In this document: positions 33,652-42,674 of the stretch, one piece after another
Numbering within the stretch: the stretch's first letter is position 1
How the letters are laid out: each line of letters opens with the position of its first letter
Origin: Thermoanaerobaculia bacterium
GTDB taxonomy: Bacteria > Acidobacteriota > Thermoanaerobaculia > UBA5066
Assembly: GCA_963816185.1 (NCBI GenBank)
Contig: CAWFJJ010000025.1
Location: 512,001 to 576,000, forward strand
Direction: 5' to 3'
DNA length: 64,000 nt
Made by a program: the position numbers and the translations under genes
Notes under the pieces: generated by a model
Databases searched by the model: none
Told to the model about the DNA's origin: nothing
What the model saw: the letters and a program-made list of their open reading frames with translations, nothing else

Positions 33652-34329
33652 CTACCCCAAGTGCGTGCGGAAGTGGGCGACGGTCCTCTGCCAGGCGTCC
33701 TTCGCGCACTCCTCCCGGTAGATGCCGGGGCGCGTGTCGTTGAAGAAGGCGTGCGGTGCGCCGCGGAAGATGATCGTCTCCACTTTCTTTCCGAGCGCCT
33801 TGAGCTTGTCCTCGAGCGGCTTCGCATCCGACGCGGGGACGCTCTCGTCCATCTCGCCGTAGATCAGGAGGATCGGGCCGGAGAGGTTCTCCCAGCGGAT
33901 TTGCACTTTTTTGAAGCCGCCGTAGAAGCTGACGGCGGCGCCCACGCTCGGGTTCGAGGTGGCGGCGTATTGCGCGAGCGCGCCGCCCACGCAGAAGCCC
34001 ACGACGCCGAAGGCCTTCGACGCGCACTCCGGCCGGTTCAGGAGATACGCGCCCGCCGCCGCGATCTCGCGGCCCGCGCGCTCGACGTCCATCTCCATCA
34101 GGAGACGCCCGGCCTCGTCCGGCGAGGTCGTCGTTTTGCCGTGATAGAGATCGGGTGCGAACGCGACGAAGCCTTCTTTCGCGAAACGGTCCGTGACATC
34201 CTGGATGTGCGGCACCAGGCCCCACCACTCCTGGATCACGACGACGGCCTGCCCCTTGCCCGACGCGGGCTTCGCGAACCACCCCTCGCCCTTCTGGCCG
34301 TTGACGGTGAAGGAGACCTTCTCGCCCAT
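33652..34329 (-). CDS. Dienelactone hydrolase family protein
   Basis: VIQEWWGL, APDLY, GFCVGG, HAFFND. Confidence 0.92.
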   Translation of the reverse strand: MGEKVSFTVNGQKGEGWFAKPASGKGQAVVVIQEWWGLVPHIQDVTDRFAKEGFVAFAPDLYHGKTTTSPDEAGRLLMEMDVERAGREIAAAGAYLLNRPECASKAFGVVGFCVGGALAQYAATSNPSVGAAVSFYGGFKKVQIRWENLSGPILLIYGEMDESVPASDAKPLEDKLKALGKKVETIIFRGAPHAFFNDTRPGIYREECAKDAWQRTVAHFRTHLG

Positions 34330-34399: not shown

Positions 34400-36172
34400 G
34401 TGCGCCGGATTCTCGCCCTCGTGGTCGTCCTCGCCGTGGCGGCCGGCGCCGTGGCGTGCAGCCTTCTCCTGAACGGAGAGAGCTCCCGGAGGAAGGACGT
34501 CACGGGCTCCCTGTTCACGGATGTCACGAAAGAGTCCGGAGTGCGCTTTCGGTTTCACGGCGACCTCATCGACGCCAAGCTGATCCCCACGATGGGCGGC
34601 GGCGCGGCGCTCGCGGACTTCGACGGAGACGGGAACCTCGATCTCGTCCTCGTCCAGCAAGTGAAGAGCGCCACGAAATGGCGGAAGGCGGGACGGACGC
34701 AGCCCCTGGCCGAGTGCACGCGCCTCTTCCGGAACCGCGGAGACGGGACGTTCGAGGACGTGACGGAGAGATCCGGCGTTGTCGCCTGCGGATGGGGCAT
34801 CACGGCGATGTGGGCCGACCTCGACAACGACGGCTTCCCGGACCTCGTCATCGGCAATGCCGGCGAGCAGAACCTCGTCTTCCGCAACAAGGGCGACGGG
34901 ACGTTCGAGAGGATGGAGAAGACGGGCCTCGAAGGCGGCAAGTTCACGGTCGGGCTTGCCGCCCTCGACATCGACGGGGACGGGCTCCCGGACGTCTACA
35001 TCGGGAACTACCTCGAGACGGACCCCGACCGCGAATCCAAAGCCAAGCCCACGTCCTTCATGACGCCCGACGAGTACAAGGGGCAGGACAACCAGATGCT
35101 GAGAAACCTCGGCGGCTGGAAATTCGCCGACGTGACCGACGCGAGCGGCACGAGGGATCCGGGCAGCAAGACGATCGGAGCCGTCGCGCTCGACTACGAC
35201 GGCGACGGAAGAACCGATCTTTACGTCTCGAACGACCAGTGGCGCAACACGCTCTTCCACAACGAGGGCGGCGGCCGGTTCCAGGACGTGTCGGACGAGA
35301 CGGGCACGGGCTATCCCGAGGAAGGCAGCACGACCGCTTTTGGGCGGAGGACGCGCAGCGGCATGGGGCTCGTCGCGGCGGACCTCGACGGCGACGGCCG
35401 GCCCGACCTCTACGTGACGAACTACGCGAACGAGCCGAACACCCTTTATCGAAACGTCGAGGGTGCGACGTTCGCGGAGAGCGAGGTCGAGGCGTTCGGG
35501 GGCGACCGCGATCCGGTCCTCCCGCTCTCGAAGTGGGGCGTCACGGCGCTCGACTTCGACAACGACGGCAGGGACGATCTCGCGGTCTCGAGCGGCCAGA
35601 TCCTCTCCCGCTTCTTCACGGTCCTTGCGGGGTGGTTCAATCCGGCGGGTCGGAACTTCGCCGTGGGCGAGAAGAGCTACGCGCAGCGGCAGTTCCTTTT
35701 CCGCAACGAAAGCGCGCCCGGGGCGATCAAGTTTCGCGACGTCTCGGCCCAGTCCGGCGACCTCGGCCGTCTGTGCGTGGTCGGGCGCGGGCTCTCGGCC
35801 GGCGACCTCGACGGCGACGGGAAAGAAGACCTCGTCTTTAACCCGATCGACGTGGCGGCCGTCGTCCTCCGCAACACGGCGCCGGGCGGGCGCGCACTGG
35901 AGATCCTGCCGGCCGTGGGCGCGGACCGCAGGACGGTCCTCGGGACGAAAATCACGGTCGGGGGGCGCGCGAAGGAGTTCTACGTCGTGCCGTCCTACGC
36001 GAGCGGTTCATGGTTGCCGCTTCACTTTGGGCTGGGAGAGGCGACCTCGGCGCGTGTGGCCGTACGGTGGCCGGACGGAACGGCGCAGGATCTCGGCGAG
36101 CTTCCCGCCGGCGCGTACAAGCTCGTGAAGGGCCTGGCGCCCGCCCCTCTCCGCGCGAAGCCGATGAAGTGA
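34400..36172 (+). CDS. CRTAC1-like lipoprotein (FG-GAP/VCBS repeats + ASPIC/UnbV)
   Basis: Lipobox AVAC; repeated DxDGDGxxDL; LHFGLG, VRWPDG. Confidence 0.88.
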   Translation: MRRILALVVVLAVAAGAVACSLLLNGESSRRKDVTGSLFTDVTKESGVRFRFHGDLIDAKLIPTMGGGAALADFDGDGNLDLVLVQQVKSATKWRKAGRTQPLAECTRLFRNRGDGTFEDVTERSGVVACGWGITAMWADLDNDGFPDLVIGNAGEQNLVFRNKGDGTFERMEKTGLEGGKFTVGLAALDIDGDGLPDVYIGNYLETDPDRESKAKPTSFMTPDEYKGQDNQMLRNLGGWKFADVTDASGTRDPGSKTIGAVALDYDGDGRTDLYVSNDQWRNTLFHNEGGGRFQDVSDETGTGYPEEGSTTAFGRRTRSGMGLVAADLDGDGRPDLYVTNYANEPNTLYRNVEGATFAESEVEAFGGDRDPVLPLSKWGVTALDFDNDGRDDLAVSSGQILSRFFTVLAGWFNPAGRNFAVGEKSYAQRQFLFRNESAPGAIKFRDVSAQSGDLGRLCVVGRGLSAGDLDGDGKEDLVFNPIDVAAVVLRNTAPGGRALEILPAVGADRRTVLGTKITVGGRAKEFYVVPSYASGSWLPLHFGLGEATSARVAVRWPDGTAQDLGELPAGAYKLVKGLAPAPLRAKPMK

Positions 36173-36197
36173 CGTTTCTCGAGCGGTGAAGGGGGCA

Positions 36198-36287
36198 GGG
36201 GGAAACGCGACCGTGTTTCCCCCATCACTCGCAGTCGCTGTAGCCCCCCTTCCTCGGTCAGACCGCGCAGCGGTTGGGGCTACAGCG
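36198..36287. repeat. Two hairpins between convergent genes
   Basis: GGGGGAAAC..GTTTCCCCC (36198-36223) and CGCTGTAGCCCC..GGGGCTACAGCG (36236-36287). Confidence 0.7.
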
Positions 36288-37188
36288 GCGTCACGTTGAC
36301 GTCTTCGCGCCGCGCGGCCGCCTCGGCCGCGGCCACGCTGATCGCATCGACGCCGTCCGCGCTCTTCAGGCTGCCGCGCGACATGCCGAAGGCCGCGAGG
36401 AGGTGACGCGGCGGCGCAAAGTCGAGGTCGGGCTCGTTCACGAAGAGGCGTCCGAGATTCTCGACGTAGGCCGACGTCAGCTCCTTCCAGGAGATCCGGT
36501 CGAACTCCTGCGCCACTTTTCGGCTTCCGAGGGACAGGAGGACGAGCGAGTGGAAGACCATCTGGTAGATGGCCTTCAGGCGCGCGCGGCTTCTCTCGGG
36601 GTGGTGCTTCAGGATCTCGCGGATGAAGTGCACGTTGAGCGGCACGTGGAACGACTCGTCCCGCGTGAGAATCGTGAGCACCTGCCGCGCGAGAGGCTGT
36701 TTCACACGCCGGAGCGACAGCCGGTACGTCGTGGCGCCGATCGTCTCGAACATGAGGTTCGTCAGCATGATCGATTCCATGCGCTCGGCCTTCGCGTAGG
36801 TCCTGTAGAACGAGCTGACCATCCAGCCCATCTCGGTCACGGCGCCGCCGATGTGCGCGAGGAACTCGTCGAGGAGCTCGCGGTGCCAGCCCTCCTCGTT
36901 GCCGTAGAGCACGAGGCACTCGGCGAGGTCGGGATCCCACGCCCGGACTTCCTCGGCGAGCCTGTGCGCGCCGGCCTTCCCCGACTCCTCGGCGCGATAC
37001 GCCGCGTTGAAGAAGCTGATGCAGGCGAGGCGCTCTTCCTCGGACTCGAACGCGACGGGTTTCGACAGGTCGAGGCGCTCGCCGTACATCCTCTCGGCGC
37101 GTTTCTTGAGCGTCTCGAGCCACCAGGCCGTCGGGCGCTGCGTCGGGATGCCGATGAGGGTGGAAACGGAGCCTTTCGCGAGCATCAC
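36280..37188 (-). CDS. Ferritin-like di-iron protein
   Basis: AEE, NEEGWH, FE and DESFH give an E/ExxH..E/ExxH ligand pattern. Confidence 0.75.
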   Translation of the reverse strand: MMLAKGSVSTLIGIPTQRPTAWWLETLKKRAERMYGERLDLSKPVAFESEEERLACISFFNAAYRAEESGKAGAHRLAEEVRAWDPDLAECLVLYGNEEGWHRELLDEFLAHIGGAVTEMGWMVSSFYRTYAKAERMESIMLTNLMFETIGATTYRLSLRRVKQPLARQVLTILTRDESFHVPLNVHFIREILKHHPERSRARLKAIYQMVFHSLVLLSLGSRKVAQEFDRISWKELTSAYVENLGRLFVNEPDLDFAPPRHLLAAFGMSRGSLKSADGVDAISVAAAEAAARREDVNVTPL

Positions 37189-37248
37189 CGCGCGGGATGA
37201 TGCCGAAACCGCAACCGCGTCGTCAAACGGGGGAGGACCGCCCCAGCG

Positions 37249-37659
37249 TCAATGCGGCTCGACCCGGAGGTGGCCGGTGAGAACCTCGCGGCCGGGCACG
37301 AGCCGAATCTCGATGCGGAAGTCCTCGCCGGAAGAAGAGAGCCCGGGCAGGGTGAAGAAGAGGGGGAGGTTGAATCCCCGCCCGGGCTCCAGGCGGGTGG
37401 GATAGGCGAGCATCCGGCACTGGCGTGTCTGCCGGGAGCGCTCGCGGCCCTCCGAGTCGAGGAGGACCATCTCGAGGAGGGGACCCGCTTCCGTGGATCC
37501 CTCCCACGCTTGAAGGGTCTTGTTCCGGATTTCGAGGTGAAGGAGGACCTTGCCGGGCTCCGTCGCGCTCGGCACGACGACCGGCTGCGGCGCATGGAGC
37601 ATCAACGACAGCGTGACGTCGCCAGCCGGCTCTTCCTTCGGCAAGCTACTTCTCAGCAT
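37249..37659 (-). CDS. Hypothetical protein, beta-rich (possibly Ig-like)
   Basis: AAAGGAG RBS; alternating beta-strand pattern (LLHLEIRN, LEPGRGFNL). Confidence 0.6.
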   Translation of the reverse strand: MLRSSLPKEEPAGDVTLSLMLHAPQPVVVPSATEPGKVLLHLEIRNKTLQAWEGSTEAGPLLEMVLLDSEGRERSRQTRQCRMLAYPTRLEPGRGFNLPLFFTLPGLSSSGEDFRIEIRLVPGREVLTGHLRVEPH

Positions 37660-37737
37660 GTCGGTGCTCCTTTCGAGCGAAACATTCCCCAGACGCCCCT
37701 TTGGCGTAGCTGGTTCGACAAACTATCCGTGGGCGTG

Positions 37738-37893
37738 TCAGCCGATGGGTCCGACGCTCGCCCCGATGGGTCCGACGCTTGCTCCGATGGGTCCGACGCT
37801 CGCTCCCGTTCCGCGATCGATATCGCGGGAACGCGCGAATCCGCCGAATTCGAAACCGGAGAAGACGTCAAAAAACGCAAAAAGAAACGCCAT
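37738..37893 (-). CDS. 51-aa peptide with a Phe-rich leader and 3x GASVGPI repeats
   Basis: AGGAGG 4 nt before ATG 37893; all differences between the repeats are synonymous in this frame. Confidence 0.65.
   Translation of the reverse strand: MAFLFAFFDVFSGFEFGGFARSRDIDRGTGASVGPIGASVGPIGASVGPIG
37742..37804. repeat. Three tandem 21-bp repeats
   Basis: CCGATGGGTCCGACGCTYGCY x3. Confidence 0.95.
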
Positions 37894-37913
37894 ACGTCCT
37901 CCTACCCCGATCC

Positions 37914-37956
37914 GGACAGGTGTGTATTTCTCCTGCCCTTCACCTAGTAGGACAGG
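37914..37956. promoter_or_regulatory. Three alternating heptamer sites upstream of the peptide gene
   Basis: GGACAGG-N11-CCTGCCC-N11-GGACAGG. Confidence 0.45.
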
Positions 37957-37987
37957 GGACACGGGCCGTTTTGACCCCCGACGCTCG

Positions 37988-38017
37988 AAAAAACATCGGC
38001 CGCCCGAAGGCGGCCGA
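37988..38017 (-). terminator. Rho-independent terminator after the TPR gene
   Basis: TCGGCCGCC-TTCG-GGCGGCCGA followed by TGTTTTTT on the minus strand. Confidence 0.75.
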
Positions 38018-38046
38018 GTGAATTCGCGACAGATCGGTGGCTGTGT

Positions 38047-39309
38047 CTAGCCGACGAGCCTCAGCGGGCGGTACGCACGTTTAACGCCATTCTCTTCGTT
38101 CTGCAGGTACTCGCGGACGTGCGCGATGAGGTCCGCGTCGATCGTGCCCTGATCGAGGCAGACGAAGAGTTCACCGAGAGCCGGCGACGGGGAGAAGCGA
38201 GAGTCGCGTCGATCGCGACGAATGCCATCGACCTCGGCGGCCATGGCGTTCAAATTGCCGAGATGGCCGAGGCACTCGGCGACATGCAGTCGTGCGAACA
38301 GGACTTCCATCGGCGATCCTGTGATTTCAGCCTCGCGCGCGATTTCTGCGAAAGCGCGCAGCGCCTGCTGGTAGCGCTCGCGACGAAAATCGAGTTCGGC
38401 GAGACCGTTTCGTACGAAGAAAACCGTCGACGTGAAGCCATGCTTTCGAGCGAGATTCAACGCACGTGCGAAACCCGCGCGCGCCTCTTCGAATCTCTCG
38501 AGCCGGGCGAGAGCGTTTGCCCGATTGTTGAGAGTCATGGCCAGCGGCTGTGCATCACACTCGGGATCGAACGCCTTAATCGCACGATCGAGCCGGGAGA
38601 GAGCTCTCAGGTCGTCACCGCGCTGCAGGAAGAGAGTCCCGAGAGCTGCCTCCGCACGGGCCACGAGATGATCCTGCCCGAACTCCGCAAAGGACGAAAG
38701 TGCGCTCTTGAGCTTCTTCTCCGCCGAGCCGTAGTCCTTTGCGAACCCGGCCGCCTGACCTTCATAGTAGTCGCACAGAGCCTGGCCGAACCCGAGGTCT
38801 CCCGACTGCCGGAAGAACTCTCGGGCCGGCTCGATCGCCGCTCGTGCGGAATCGGCCTCGCCGACCTGCAAAAAGGCGTGAGACCTGAGGATCATCGCTT
38901 CGGCTTGGACCGCCTGTCTTGGCGCCGGCGTCGTGAGTCGGGAGTCGCGATTCACATCGAGAAGAGAGGATGCTTCCGCGAGAAGCTCATCTGCGAAATG
39001 AAGTGCGACCCTTGGATTCTCGGAAACGAGCGGCCCCGCCTTCTGTGCCGCGTACAGCAGAGCAAAGCCCCGGTAGGGCTTGCCGTCCAGCGAGCGGAGC
39101 GCGGCCGCGAGTTCGTCGGCGCCGGACCGGGCGGCATTCAGGATCAGCTCGGCGGGCTTCTCGGCGTCCTGTGAAAGCTGGTAAATCTCTTCCACGGAAA
39201 CGCGAGCGTTGGCTCTCACGAAGGGGAGCGTGCGGCCCATGGCCTCGCGCGGCAGCTCGGGCACGAGCTCGCTCTCGAGGATCGCGTCGAAGACGTCATC
39301 CTTCTTCAC
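38047..39309 (-). CDS. TPR-repeat protein (about 420 aa)
   Basis: Helical repeats (ARAEAALGTLFLQRGD, AMTLNNRANALARLERFEEA); GTG 39309 overlaps the upstream stop (GTGA). Confidence 0.75.
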   Translation of the reverse strand: MKKDDVFDAILESELVPELPREAMGRTLPFVRANARVSVEEIYQLSQDAEKPAELILNAARSGADELAAALRSLDGKPYRGFALLYAAQKAGPLVSENPRVALHFADELLAEASSLLDVNRDSRLTTPAPRQAVQAEAMILRSHAFLQVGEADSARAAIEPAREFFRQSGDLGFGQALCDYYEGQAAGFAKDYGSAEKKLKSALSSFAEFGQDHLVARAEAALGTLFLQRGDDLRALSRLDRAIKAFDPECDAQPLAMTLNNRANALARLERFEEARAGFARALNLARKHGFTSTVFFVRNGLAELDFRRERYQQALRAFAEIAREAEITGSPMEVLFARLHVAECLGHLGNLNAMAAEVDGIRRDRRDSRFSPSPALGELFVCLDQGTIDADLIAHVREYLQNEENGVKRAYRPLRLVG

Positions 39310-39794
39310 GGTCTCAGCCTCACGAGTCCGGCACGGAGGCGGTCCCACAGCGTGCGCCGGAAGGCGCGCATCGGCGCGGTCCTGGGAGACGCGGGCGCGG
39401 TCTCGACGCGGACCTCGATCTCGCCCGATTCCGCGAGCCTGAGATCGCGCACGACGAACGCAGGCCCGGAATCCCCGATGCCGCGTCTCTCACGCGCCTG
39501 GAGAAGGTTGTTGCACTGATTCAGGAACGCCGCGCGCAAGTACGCCTTCGGGTCGCGCACGCGCGGGTTCATCGCGAGCACCTTGAGGAAGACGGTCTGC
39601 GCGGCTCCCTCGCATTCGTCCTGCGTGAGGCCGAACCGGATGACGCCGGCCGCGATGAGGCGGGGGCGGAACTTCGCGTTCAGCTCCTCCCAGTTCCAGA
39701 CGGGCCGCGCGGGGGCAGTGACCTCGACCGGCGCGAACCGGGCGCGCTGCCTTTGCACCTCGTCGGGCGGAATCTCTACGAAGTTCCGGGACAT
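39306..39794 (-). CDS. ECF-sigma-like protein with region 2 only
   Basis: WEELNAKFRPRLI..RFGLTQDECEGAAQTVFLKV..AYLRAAFLNQCNNLLQ resembles sigma70 region 2; no region 4 HTH seen. Confidence 0.6.
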   Translation of the reverse strand: MSRNFVEIPPDEVQRQRARFAPVEVTAPARPVWNWEELNAKFRPRLIAAGVIRFGLTQDECEGAAQTVFLKVLAMNPRVRDPKAYLRAAFLNQCNNLLQARERRGIGDSGPAFVVRDLRLAESGEIEVRVETAPASPRTAPMRAFRRTLWDRLRAGLVRLRP

Positions 39795-39821
39795 CTTTCC
39801 CCTTACGAGAAGAGCCCTTAT

Positions 39822-39851
39822 ATGCTACGCCCGCTTTCCGGCAGGGGTCAA
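39822..39851 (-). promoter_or_regulatory. Sigma70-like promoter for the sigma/TPR pair
   Basis: TTGACC-N18-TAGCAT on the minus strand. Confidence 0.4.
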
Positions 39852-39920
39852 CCGGAACCTCGCAGACAACCCTAATTCAACGCTAACGTCAGACATCCGG
39901 AATCAGAGGGGTGGGCTCGC

Positions 39921-42674
39921 ATGGCGACTAAGAAGAAGGCTAAAGCAGCACCGAGGAAGCTCGTTTACTCGTTCGGAGCGGGAGCTGCCGAGGGAAGAGG
40001 CAGGCAGAAGGACCTGCTCGGCGGCAAAGGGGCGAACCTGGCCGAGATGGGGCGGCTTGGCCTGCCGGTGCCCCCCGGCTTCACCATCACGACCGAGGTC
40101 TGCACCTTCTTCTACGACAACAAGAAGAGCTACCCCAAGGGTTTGCGCAAGGAGGTCGCGACCCACCTGAAGGGGATCGAGAAGAAGCTCGGACGCACCT
40201 TCGGGGACCCGAAGAACCCGCTGACGGTGTCCGTTCGATCGGGCGCGCGGGCATCCATGCCGGGCATGATGGACACGATCCTGAACCTCGGCCTGAATGA
40301 CGAGACGGTCGAAGGTTTGGCGCAAGTCTCGAAGACCCCCCGCTTCGCCTGGGACTGCTACCGGCGGTTCGTGGCGATGTACGGAGACGTCGTTCTCGAG
40401 CTGAAACCGCTTGACAGGCACGAGCGGGACCCGTTCGAGGTCATCCTCGAGAAGAAAAAGAGCGCCTACAAGGTAAACCTCGACATGGAGCTCCCGGTGC
40501 AAGCCCTCCGGGAGCTCGTGCGCGAGTTCAAGGCCGAGATCAAGAAGCGTACCGGGAAGACCTTCCCGGACGATCCTCTCGAGCAGCTCTGGGGCGCGAT
40601 TGGCGCCGTGTTCGGCTCCTGGATGAACGACCGCGCGAAGGTCTACCGGCAGCTCAACGGAATTCCGGAGAGCTGGGGCACCGCGGTGACCGTCCAGTCG
40701 ATGGTGTTCGGCAATCTCGGCGGCGACTGCGGAACGGGCGTCGCGTTCACGCGCGACCCCGCGTCGGGGGAGAACGTCTTCTACGGCGAGTACCTGATCA
40801 ACGCGCAGGGCGAGGATGTCGTGGCCGGCGTGCGCACGCCGCAGAAGATCGCGACGCTCGGCAGGAAGATGCCGAAGGTCTACGCGGAACTGCTCGGCAT
40901 CCGGAAGACGCTCGAGGACCACTACGGCGACATGCAGGACATCGAGTTCACGGTGGAGGCCGGGAAGCTCTGGATGCTCCAGACGCGGACCGGCAAGCGC
41001 ACGGGCTTCGCGGAGGTGCGCATCGCCGTCGAGATGGTCGAGGAGAAGCGCATCACGCCCGAGCAGGCCGTCCTGCGCGTGAACCCCGACTCTCTGAACC
41101 AGCTTCTCAGGCCGATCTTCGATCCGGCCGCGAAGGCCGAGGCGATGGGCGCCGGCCAGTTTCTCGCGAAGGGTCTCAACGCCGGGCCGGGCGCCGCCAC
41201 GGGGCGCGCCGTCTTCACGGCGCTCGACGCCTTCGAGTGGGCCGAACGCGGCGAGAAGGTGCTCCTCGTACGCGAGGAGACGAGCCCCGAGGACATCAAA
41301 GGCATGAACGCGGCGGAGGGCGTCCTCACGGCGCGCGGCGGCATGACGTCTCACGCCGCGCTCGTCGCGAGGCAGATGGGCAAGGTGTGCATCGTGGGCT
41401 GCGAGACCCTGCGGATCGACGCGCAGCAGCGCCTCATGACGATCGCCTCGCCCGGCGCGAAAGAGCCGCGCATCGTCCACGAGGGCGACTGGCTCTCCAT
41501 CGACGGCTCGACGGGCGAGGTCATCGAGGGCCGCATCGGGACGAAGCCGTCCGAGGTCCTGCAGGTCATCCTCGACCGCTCCCTCGATCCGAAGAAGAGC
41601 GAGGTCTACCGGCGCTACGCGACGCTCATGAAGTGGGCGGACAAGGCTCGGCGCCTGAAGGTGCGCGCGAACGCCGACCAGCCGGACCAGGCCACGAACG
41701 CCGTCGCGTTCGGGGCCGAAGGCATCGGCCTCTGCCGCACGGAGCACATGTTCTTCGGCGGCGAGCGCATCACGGCGATGCGCGAGATGATCCTCGCGGA
41801 CAAGACCGAGGACCGCGAGCGTGCGCTCGACAAGATCCTCCCCATGCAGCGCGAGGACTTCGTCGGCCTGTTCCGCGCGATGGGGCCGCGCCCGGTGACG
41901 ATCCGGACGCTCGACCCGCCGCTCCACGAGTTCCTTCCGCACGGCGAGAAGGAGCGCGAGAGCGTGGCGCGCCAGGCCGGCGTCGACCCGCGCACCGTGG
42001 CGCGCAAGGTGGCCGAGCTGCACGAGATGAACCCGATGCTCGGGCACCGCGGCTGCCGCTTGGGCATCTCGTTTCCCGAGATCACCCGCATGCAGACGCG
42101 CGCGATCCTCGAGGCCGCGTGCCGCGTCAAGAAGGAAGGCATCGACGTGAGGCCCGAGATCATGATTCCACTCGTCGGCCACGTGAACGAGCTGGCCGAC
42201 CAGGCGAAGATCGTGCGCGACACCGCGAAGAAAGTCTTCGAGGCGGAAGGGATCAAGGTGAGCTTCCTTCTCGGCACGATGATCGAGCTGCCGCGCGCGG
42301 CGGTCACGGCGGACGAGATCGCTCGGGAGGCCGAGTTCTTCAGCTTCGGGACGAACGACCTCACGCAGACGACGTTCGGGCTCTCGCGGGACGACGCGGG
42401 CAAGTTCCTGCCCGAGTACGTGCGGCGCGAGATCCTGCCCGCCGATCCCTTCGAGAGGCTCGACCAGATCGGCGTCGGCAAGCTCATGAAGATGGCCGTC
42501 GAGCTGGGGCGCTCGACGCGCCCGGATATGCACCTCGGGATTTGCGGCGAGCACGGCGGCGACCCGTCCAGCGTGGAGTTCTGTCACCGCATCGGCCTCG
42601 ACTACGTGTCCTGCTCGCCGTTTCGCATCCCGATCGCCCGGCTGGCCGCGGCGCAGGCGGCGCTGAGGAAGTGA
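39921..42674 (+). CDS. ppdK: Pyruvate, phosphate dikinase
   Basis: [25 protein letters not shown] phospho-His motif, [24 protein letters not shown]. Confidence 0.97.

Follow-up and report, generated by a model that had tools for sequence, protein, structure and literature searches.

Peptide signalling through cytoplasmic tetratricopeptide repeat (TPR) receptors has been described for Firmicutes and their phages. Here, we report on a small gene that lies downstream of a TPR protein gene in a genome of Thermoanaerobaculia (Acidobacteriota; assembly GCA_963816185.1) and that was analyzed within a stretch of 64,000 nucleotides (contig CAWFJJ010000025.1, positions 512,001 to 576,000; hereafter the window). 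Its product carries three tandem copies of a seven-residue core and belongs to an undescribed pro-peptide family found in Thermoanaerobaculia, whose members accompany an extracytoplasmic function (ECF) type sigma factor and its TPR partner. By analogy, the Rgg/SHP system may serve as the closest working model. In Streptococcus pyogenes, SHP3 is reported to be a 23-residue hydrophobic pre-peptide which is processed by the S2P protease Eep and of which the C-terminal eight residues, DIIIIVGG, are active, the last glycine being needed (PMC3150281). Several paralogous Rgg/SHP pairs per genome have been described (PMC3679016). In Streptomyces, a 19-residue hydrophobic peptide, PepX, was studied with ECF sigma mutants (PMC11256431); it is unrelated to the present peptide in sequence and context.

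Each part of the locus is of a known kind: the ECF sigma with its anti-sigma, the peptide receptor built of TPRs, and the small pro-peptide. No description of the sigma/TPR/peptide combination was found in PubMed Central open-access articles and bioRxiv, subscription journals and supplements lying outside the search. In the same two collections, the full-text search gave no paper that treats the RRNPP family (Rap, Rgg, NprR, PlcR, PrgX, AimR) together with Acidobacteriota, and six core motifs gave no relevant match; nothing relevant to ECF sigma/anti-sigma/TPR/precursor peptide systems or to peptide pheromones of Acidobacteria appeared among the matches listed. The reading that we prefer is that of a feedback module, in which a sigma-driven pro-peptide would act on the TPR anti-sigma through its C-terminal core or cores. 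We hold it tentatively, at somewhat less than an even chance.

In the window, the gene is read on the minus strand and begins with GGTAGGAGGACGT-ATG, the ATG being at 37893-37891 and the AGGAGG at 37903-37898. The product is MAFLFAFFDVFSGFEFGGFARSRDIDRGT-GASVGPI-GASVGPI-GASVGPI-G, followed by a TGA stop at 37740-37738. Tandem Repeats Finder (TRF) gave a score of 111 to an array at 37742-37808, which holds 3.1 copies of a 21-bp unit. The DNA of the three ASVGPIG units (GCGAGCGTCGGACCCATCGGA, GCAAGCGTCGGACCCATCGGG and GCGAGCGTCGGACCCATCGGC) differs only by GCG/GCA/GCG and GGA/GGG/GGC, unit 1 being preceded by a further GGA, and all these differences are at synonymous third positions. The original prediction, made from the window alone, had described the AGGAGG-ACGT-ATG start, the triple GASVGPI and the synonymous differences (GCG/GCA/GCG; GGA/GGA/GGG/GGC), and it was right in every detail. 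Three variable sites in a single gene are weak evidence for selection, and Pfam and NCBIfam scans of the window peptide gave zero family matches.

The relatives provide many more sites. Among 11 orthologous loci that were read, one (L003) ends before the place of the peptide; the other 10 all have a small open reading frame (ORF) at the same position with the same ribosome-binding site. Anchoring on p136, the gene that follows the peptide gene in the window, gave 27 loci, one of them without upstream DNA, and an intact peptide ORF was present in 22 of the remaining 26. As for the others, the ORF of L038 is frameshifted in an error-prone assembly, which also splits four neighbouring genes there, that of L034 extends past the usual stop, and that of L042 is truncated at the contig end and still shows PVHSTTIG three times. 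L043 has no peptide at its p136 locus and is also devoid of the sigma and TPR genes. L042 (5321 bases) comes from a contig labelled Acidithiobacillales and carries, besides the truncated PVHSTTIG x3 ORF, a p136 homologue (50% identity) and two TPR homologues (49-51%); it is either a binning error or a transfer of the module beyond Acidobacteriota.

The products of the orthologous and p136-anchored loci (group A, see below) begin with M-[DEN]-F-[LI]-F-[AS]-[LF]-[FI]-x-x-F and end with a core of the type x-x-x-[GT]-P-I-[GSNQ], which is present in one, two, three or four copies, changes in copy number being always in frame. RIGPIGG, DRTGPIGG and RTTPIVG are examples of single cores, the shortest product having 18 residues, and SGIGPIG is found four times in one precursor. 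Over the whole family, members have 18-56 residues. They start with some 11-16 residues that are hydrophobic and rich in Phe or Leu, in many cases continue with a short linker of basic character, and have a core of 7-8 residues that ends in P-[IVL]-G(G), less often in T-I-G-G, P-V-Q-G and the like, and that occurs once or in 2-4 tandem copies. A profile search of 5.8 billion proteins yielded 67 homologues of the peptide; those named by their source are all called 'hypothetical protein', and none of the 67 has a Pfam domain. The 60 database homologues that were fetched all contain 2-4 cores. Five further precursors with ASVGPIG x3 were found among them, plus one with a G/A change in the last copy, and the leaders of all of these have diverged. 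In the single-core peptides (L006, L031, L032, L037, L052-L059, L087), one or two cysteines very often directly precede the core, as in ..FSC-DRTGPIGG, ..DCC-RGTGPIGG and ..LVC-AGGTVPLG; the multi-core precursors have no such cysteine.

Adjacent core units were then compared within 16 distinct multi-core genes, which gave 81 synonymous versus 8 non-synonymous codon differences. All 8 non-synonymous differences are located at unit positions 1-3, while positions 4-7 ([GT]-P-I-[GSN]) have 54 synonymous differences and 0 non-synonymous ones. Across 23 distinct genes, the 11 codons at the 5' end vary 59, 14 and 84 times at codon positions 1, 2 and 3, a pattern which is the signature of a conserved hydrophobic peptide. 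Since the DNA of the copies drifts and the peptide encoded by each copy stays constant, a non-coding repeat and mere DNA homogenisation are excluded. At the level of comparative sequence analysis, the peptide ORF is thereby shown to be a genuine gene with selection on every core copy.

That the ORF could be an accident of a non-coding 21-bp tandem repeat or of a protein-binding site would suit the small number of variable sites in the window gene and the lack of a family match for its product. This explanation is effectively refuted by the conservation of ORF, ribosome-binding site and frame over dozens of loci, by the in-frame changes in copy number and the excess of synonymous differences, and by the single-core members, which have no DNA repeat and retain the same peptide ends. 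The selection on the peptide that had originally been suspected is thus borne out by the 16 genes. The small ORFs that were to be looked for beside TPR homologues are present in nearly all loci examined, and the repeat variants of relatives, which would have told against the idea had they been mostly non-synonymous or frameshifting, are overwhelmingly synonymous and in frame.

Three paralogous sigma/TPR/peptide triads were found in this genome: that of the window and those of contigs C28 and C5. The C28 and C5 TPR proteins are 33-37% identical to the window TPR protein, and the same kind of ribosome-binding site precedes their peptide genes, which encode MDFDFGFGSFLYFIDWFGFGSSAES-VSTTTIGG-NK-VSTTTIGG (C28) and MDATTLIDLALSLLGLTTTDTTDPTDGTDRSIKPIGG (C5). 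No paralogue of p136 or of the ferritin-like diiron protein encoded after it was found in this genome. A larger set of paralogues comprised 40 loci drawn from 24 genomes within the genus, plus 5 loci from other families of the order. From it, 36 TPR 3' ends were anchored (2 from this genome), two of them without downstream DNA. A small ORF of 19-45 codons follows 30 of the remaining 34 within 175-226 nt, and its product ends in P-[IVL]-[GQVA]-G, P-I-G, T-[TS]-I-G-G or similar; the four 3' ends without a peptide belong to TPR paralogues that are longer and come second at these loci. By-eye reading of four additional loci showed the peptide in all of them. Family-wide, peptide genes lie 100-225 nt downstream of the sigma/TPR pair.

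TPR orthologues within the genus are 60-69% identical, and a match was obtained in 39 of 41 genomes, including 24 of 24 in the genus. This tally takes in the unpublished G025 and G030, and that of the sister genus adds G155 and G196; no loci were drawn from these, and nothing else here depends on them. Outside the genus, strong TPR matches came from one sister genus, in 2 of 2 genomes, and the peptide is present at both loci (STGSGLVPVG x3 and MVSFFALIIILVCAGGTVPLG). For TPR homologues of at most 31% identity (L088-L092, L094-L098 and 5 other loci), a simple screen revealed no clear peptide; the ORFs of L073 and L074, ending in GPIPA and GPVPE, are uncertain candidates.

In a maximum-likelihood tree of 40 TPR proteins, the sequences fall into three clades (A, B and C; support 100/100), which the peptide types follow. 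Group A is the window type, with p136. Peptides of group B include MFETLFALFFDCC-RGTGPIGG, INAGPIG x3, AGVSPIG x3 and VTSMPVQG x2, and MDALTLLLLLLGLGSGATTSAADDPERGTRPVGG is an example from group C. What lies downstream depends on the group: p136 with or without the diiron protein in A, a terminator in B (in this genome, a terminator-like hairpin 61 nt past the peptide stop) and a histidine kinase in C. Because the three TPR clades have different downstream genes, and because L043 lacks sigma, TPR and peptide genes together, the peptide tracks the sigma/TPR pair and not p136 or the diiron gene. Gene order shows a constant linkage to sigma/TPR across the three paralogous clades. Together with the peptide-groove superhelix predicted for the TPR protein, it supports a functional link of the peptide to the gene of that protein, and not to the genes that come after the peptide gene.

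Some further features of these paralogous loci were recorded. In group C (L069 3219-4292 and 4297-4680; also L045 and L070), the histidine kinase encoded downstream is short and has a single hydrophobic segment, which is N-terminal; an AraC-like helix-turn-helix (HTH) gene comes after it, both genes being co-oriented with the peptide gene. At L045 5277-6708 (C5), the TPR/anti-sigma gene is split over two frames, through either a frameshift or an assembly error, and the kinase after the peptide is apparently 5'-shifted. In some group A loci (L022 4445-5581, L025 6428-7870 and L028 6444-6980), p136 is followed not by the diiron gene but by a second, convergent TPR/anti-sigma paralogue that has HxxxCxxC, and this paralogue nests within the multi-core group A clade of the tree.

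With the pattern used, the promoter-like motif of the window occurs once in the 5.09-Mb draft genome. All listed group A upstream regions contain GGGGGTCAAA(A/G)-N-CTGTC(T/C)(T/A)A, about 65-95 nt before the ATG, and related motifs are present in group B (GGGGGTCAAAGGTGTGCCC..GTCTGTCCGTATATATAGCCCAC) and group C (GGTTGAAAACC..CCGTCT(A/C)T). ECF promoters have a consensus with AAC at -35 and CGTC at -10. Likened to it, the candidate motifs upstream of the peptide genes, G[GT]T[CG]AAA-N-(C)GTC, resemble ECF promoters in all three groups. As the GGGGGTCAAA element is common to A and B, the full-length sigma of the C28 triad (group B) might also serve the window promoter. A second promoter-like copy (GGGGGTCAAAG..CTGTC..TACTAATAGCCCAC) was seen in group B (L044 4842-4885, on C28; L056, L058, L059 and L061-L063). 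It lies 320-375 nt past the first, behind the peptide gene, and is directed towards a convergent gene, whose 3' end it would read into. As there is no conserved ORF after this copy, its product may be an antisense or other non-coding RNA.

The table gathers the features of the window. The stem of the hairpin in the 5' untranslated region (5'-UTR) is retained with altered letters in relatives (by eye, e.g. GGCAGGA..TCCTGCC). In the hairpin ahead of p136, the 5-pair stem is mostly kept, with weak covariation. When 36000-40000 was searched against Rfam, RsmV alone was returned, at the level of chance (E 0.81).

Table. Features of the peptide locus in the window, ordered 5' to 3' along the minus strand.
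Feature	Position	Strand	Basis and remarks
ECF-type sigma-like protein, 162 residues	39306..39794	-	Weak NCBIfam sigma matches over region 2; alignment with relatives
Cytoplasmic TPR protein, 433 residues as listed	38047..39348	-	Pfam TPR_12 (E 7e-12); anti-sigma-type partner
Intrinsic terminator of the TPR gene	37988..38017	-	Stem 38017-37996, 9 pairs, 8 of them G-C; T run; conserved in relatives
ECF-type promoter-like motif, GGTCAAAA-N-CTGTCCTA	37948..37976	-	Conserved in group A; putative promoter
5'-UTR hairpin, GGGCAGG-loop-CCTGTCC	37914..37938	-	Fold of 37894-37950: -17.8 kcal/mol, z -2.75
Shine-Dalgarno AGGAGG	37898..37903	-	4 nt ahead of the ATG; GGAGGA before the start in essentially all listed family members
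Small peptide gene, 51 codons + TGA	37738..37893	-	ORF; hydrophobic/aromatic N-terminus (MAFLFAFFDVF..), basic linker, three ASVGPIG cores
Tandem 21-bp core units (Gly codon + 3 x ASVGPIG)	37741..37806	-	TRF; unit DNA
Conserved G+C hairpin after the peptide stop, ahead of the p136 ribosome-binding site	37693..37707	-	RNAalifold, 14 loci
p136, Ig-like beta-sandwich (BsuPI-like), 136 residues	37249..37659	-	Co-oriented after the peptide gene; group A only
Ferritin-like diiron oxygenase/desaturase-like protein, 302 residues	36280..37188	-	Pfam AurF (E 0.0037)

Transcript data were sought in soil RNA libraries. In one search, the runs shared only small fractions of words (0.05-0.09). Contigs of relatives, mostly 90-95% alike, were recovered from four runs of two studies and cover the genes of p136 and the diiron protein, the region that holds terminator and promoter, and the 5' portion of the sigma gene. 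In one contig (X4 record 19), p136 and the promoter/terminator flanks are joined through 214 unlike letters in place of window 37697-37914. The peptide gene is the hypervariable island of the locus. Since DNA may contaminate the libraries and contigs give neither starts nor levels, these data weigh neither way on transcription of the peptide gene.

The sigma gene of the window ends in a TGA that overlaps an in-frame TPR GTG (GTGA at 39309-39306), and the TPR protein probably starts at this GTG (420 residues) rather than at 39348. A Pfam scan of the window sigma-like protein gave no match. Its counterpart at L025 is a 188-residue sigma with Pfam Sigma70_r4, and the paralogous sigmas of this genome carry Sigma70_r2, that of L045 having region 4 too. 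HxxxCxxC, the zinc-binding motif of anti-sigma factors, was recognised by eye at the N-terminus of the TPR proteins in most relatives and paralogues; no Pfam zf-HC2 match was returned. When compared with L025, L044 and L045, the window sigma, like those of L018 and L020, is devoid of about 31 residues of region 4 and retains only its last helix (..RTLWDRLRAGLVRLRP), and the window TPR protein is devoid of the segment of about 45 residues that holds HxxxCxxC. This doubly reduced form is common to the window, L017, L018, L020, L023 and L038. Among the latter five loci, the reduced sigma is 78-83% identical, which exceeds the TPR identity in the same loci; the L029 sigma aligns over its whole length at only 58%. 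The peptide cores of the reduced-pair lineage are still under selection.

No HTH family was found on the window TPR protein in Pfam or NCBIfam. Pfam gives generic TPR families only, and the best NCBIfam matches, NsdA_fam_reg and HaaT, are far under their cutoffs. The AlphaFold2 (AF2) model (mean predicted local distance difference test, pLDDT, 85.4) forms a continuous TPR superhelix over residues 50-420, the part up to residue 49 being disordered or of low confidence. With Foldseek, its best matches in the PDB were the TPR domain of LGN/Pins, which holds extended peptides in its groove, followed by Rap proteins, including the pheromone complexes 4gyo, 8rsv, 8rst and 6t46 (TMq ~0.5). The predicted fold is thus of a peptide-binding kind and fits a peptide-binding role. 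Prediction of a complex between the TPR protein (40-row alignment) and the 51-residue peptide (14-row alignment) gave 0.01 against a mark of 0.32 in a control-free run, and weighs neither way.

In the feedback module that we propose, the neighbouring ECF sigma would transcribe the peptide gene, and the pro-peptide would be cleaved to release its core or cores, so that multi-core precursors would give several identical copies. A core would then dock in the groove of the TPR superhelix of the anti-sigma and alter the amount of free sigma, which would close the loop; in group A, the loop would also drive p136 and, where present, the diiron protein. The peptide could either leave and re-enter the cell, in a quorum-sensing-like manner comparable to SHP/Rgg and Phr/Rap, or act from inside. 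A more far-reaching version would make the triads pheromone channels of a didermic, non-Firmicute phylum with an anti-sigma as receptor. The ECF sigma would drive an alpha-factor-like multi-copy pro-pheromone, of which a released 6-8-mer would re-enter, bind the TPR protein and free the sigma, and each genome would hold orthogonal A, B and C channels with species-specific cores. We consider this extension doubtful.

Several points weigh against the feedback module. The sigma dependence of the promoter, the proteolytic processing, the binding to the TPR protein and any export are steps that we infer. With part of region 4 and HxxxCxxC missing, the window pair may not work as a canonical sigma/anti-sigma pair, and the matches of the TPR fold are generic for TPR superhelices. 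The soil contigs, whose uncovered parts carry no meaning, do not demonstrate that the peptide gene is transcribed. In the loci examined, genes for export, for proteolytic processing or for oligopeptide import were not found linked to the peptide. Because residue 2 is acidic in most relatives (Ala in the window peptide) and there is no basic n-region, the peptide is not a classical Sec signal, which would have a basic start; in this respect, the comparison with Phr/AimP-type propeptides made in the original prediction is not supported. P-I-G-G is kept across TPR clades that are only 33-38% identical, which shared processing or modification would explain at least as well as recognition by the receptor. 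Finally, cis linkage alone predicts the co-divergence of TPR protein and peptide, which therefore has no independent weight: the co-variation that the original prediction had proposed as a check does exist, in that the peptide types follow the TPR tree, but it does not argue for binding. The same prediction had placed the gene just downstream of its TPR receptor, taken to be of the Phr/AimP (RRNPP) type. The adjacency is real, the ATG sitting 153 bases past the TPR stop codon (38049-38047), but the strong intrinsic terminator between them makes the peptide gene a separate transcription unit. The receptor type had to be revised, as the TPR protein has neither an HTH nor a Rap-type effector domain and is paired with an ECF sigma, with HxxxCxxC in relatives.

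The genes downstream of the peptide bear on two other explanations. p136 gave no Pfam or NCBIfam match. Its Atlas neighbours include clusters of PF12690 (BsuPI intracellular proteinase inhibitor), and Foldseek with its AF2 model (pLDDT 83.6) retrieved generic Ig/macroglobulin (MG) domains, with BsuPI 3isy at rank 11; the modelled fold is not that of an enzyme. The Atlas neighbours of the diiron protein are FA_desaturase_2, AurF and rubrerythrin, and a PDB sequence search with it gave nothing. The diiron gene directly follows p136 in 14 of 26 loci and is non-adjacent in 12, where an inverted TPR paralogue or a convergent FG-GAP gene sits after p136 (at L041, the diiron gene is 3 kb off). From its distribution, it appears to be an optional member of the operon. 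Beyond it lie an FG-GAP/ASPIC repeat protein gene (34400-36172, plus strand) and a dienelactone hydrolase gene (33652-34329, minus strand), which stay syntenic with the locus in the majority of relatives. With their convergent orientation or their place on the other side, these genes show no evident link to the peptide.

The peptide might be the precursor of a ribosomally synthesised and post-translationally modified peptide (RiPP), with a leader recognised by a modifying system and with cores that are excised and modified, for instance oxidised by the diiron protein with p136 as its partner, or treated by unlinked enzymes; the sigma/TPR pair would then only regulate the cluster, or the TPR protein would be a scaffold. 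The architecture is indeed that of such precursors, a conserved leader followed by variable repeated cores, and in the window p136 and the diiron gene come next in the same orientation, while the conserved hairpin behind the peptide gene could set the ratio of precursor to enzyme. The C-terminal P-I-G-G common to the paralogous groups would suit a shared enzyme. In addition, NCBIfam NF041717 (HaaT), the TPR protein of cyclophane RiPP clusters, is matched in separate parts by the TPR protein of the window, at E 6e-5, and by its diiron protein, at E 2e-3; both matches are far below the 1125-bit cutoff. However, no dedicated enzyme is co-inherited with the peptide. The diiron gene is the direct neighbour of p136 in little more than half of the loci, p136 is a non-enzymatic Ig-like sandwich without a paralogue at the other two triads, the triads of groups B and C have neither p136 nor the diiron gene, the group B peptide of this genome being followed by its terminator-like hairpin, and no radical SAM, YcaO, lanthipeptide, MNIO or peptidase/transporter genes were seen in the loci read. 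Lacking a constantly linked enzyme, the RiPP explanation is weakened, and we regard it as unlikely. An improbable alternative, to our judgement, is that the peptide is only an output of the sigma regulon and does not bind the TPR protein: for instance a micro-protein associated with the membrane, or one that serves a protease as decoy, substrate or regulator, the BsuPI-like p136 then belonging to the same pathway. Its hydrophobic N-terminus could associate with the membrane, an ECF-like promoter lies directly upstream, the group B unit is monocistronic, and p136 resembles the fold of an intracellular proteinase inhibitor. Yet selection is strongest on the hydrophilic C-terminal cores, of which the tandem copies are kept identical at the protein level, and this focus on the cores points to a released short product and not to a membrane helix. 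With about 11 hydrophobic residues, the shortest members (18 residues) could not span a membrane, and this alternative gives no reason why the peptide is so strictly paired with a TPR protein whose fold is of the peptide-binding kind.

Four narrower ideas were rejected. A Phe-attenuator leader peptide would suit the Phe-rich leader, but group C is Leu-rich, the downstream genes are not those of Phe biosynthesis and the cores are the most selected part. Macrocyclisation of Pro-bounded heptamers by an enzyme of the prolyl-oligopeptidase type fails since single-core members have only one Pro. The cysteines that often precede single cores recall a lipoprotein signal, but there is neither a basic n-region nor a canonical lipobox. 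Finally, a role of the C-terminal Gly as an amide donor does not agree with the cores that end in S, N or A.

If the peptide of the proposed feedback module does act on the TPR anti-sigma, it would represent a new type of input for ECF sigma/anti-sigma switches. Peptide autoinduction would then reach an abundant and poorly cultured soil phylum, and naturally orthogonal sigma/anti-sigma/peptide parts would become available. Even with the mechanism set aside, this family offers a clean example of small genes that annotation leaves without function and for which the evidence of selection is unusually clear.

With the known precursors yeast alpha-factor and cyanobactin PatE, the locus shares tandem identical short cores in one precursor and a copy number that varies between relatives; in contrast to them, the units abut, with no dibasic spacers of the Kex2 type and no cyanobactin recognition sequences, and no linked protease or macrocyclase was found in the loci. 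Like ECF sigma/anti-sigma pairs of the RsrA/ChrR type, it has adjacent, translationally coupled genes; in relatives, there are Pfam matches to Sigma70 regions 2 and/or 4 and, by eye, HxxxCxxC. It departs from them in that the sensor is a TPR superhelix of about 370 residues, the nearest apparent target is a multi-core peptide gene, and the region 4 HTH and the HxxxCxxC segment have both been deleted in the window lineage. As regards the RRNPP family, the predicted TPR-like superhelix and the adjacent small propeptide gene are present, whereas Pfam and NCBIfam do not support sequence homology to a known family. The position of the small ORF immediately downstream of the TPR gene, and a predicted superhelix that matches Rap, recall Rap/Phr and other RRNPP cassettes; the TPR protein, however, has no N-terminal 3-helix effector domain of the Rap type, the peptide has no Sec-type signal, and a terminator and a separate ECF-like promoter stand between the two genes. 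Compared with Rgg/SHP, the TPR protein has no HTH and is instead the partner of an ECF sigma, with HxxxCxxC in relatives. The cores, hydrophilic and rich in Gly and Pro, stand in 2-4 copies in many of the precursors, and the host is a didermic acidobacterium. In both systems, the gene of a very short hydrophobic pre-peptide adjoins that of a cytoplasmic helical-repeat receptor, and, by analogy with SHP3, whose active segment of about eight residues ends in Gly-Gly, the core of the present family lies at the C-terminus.

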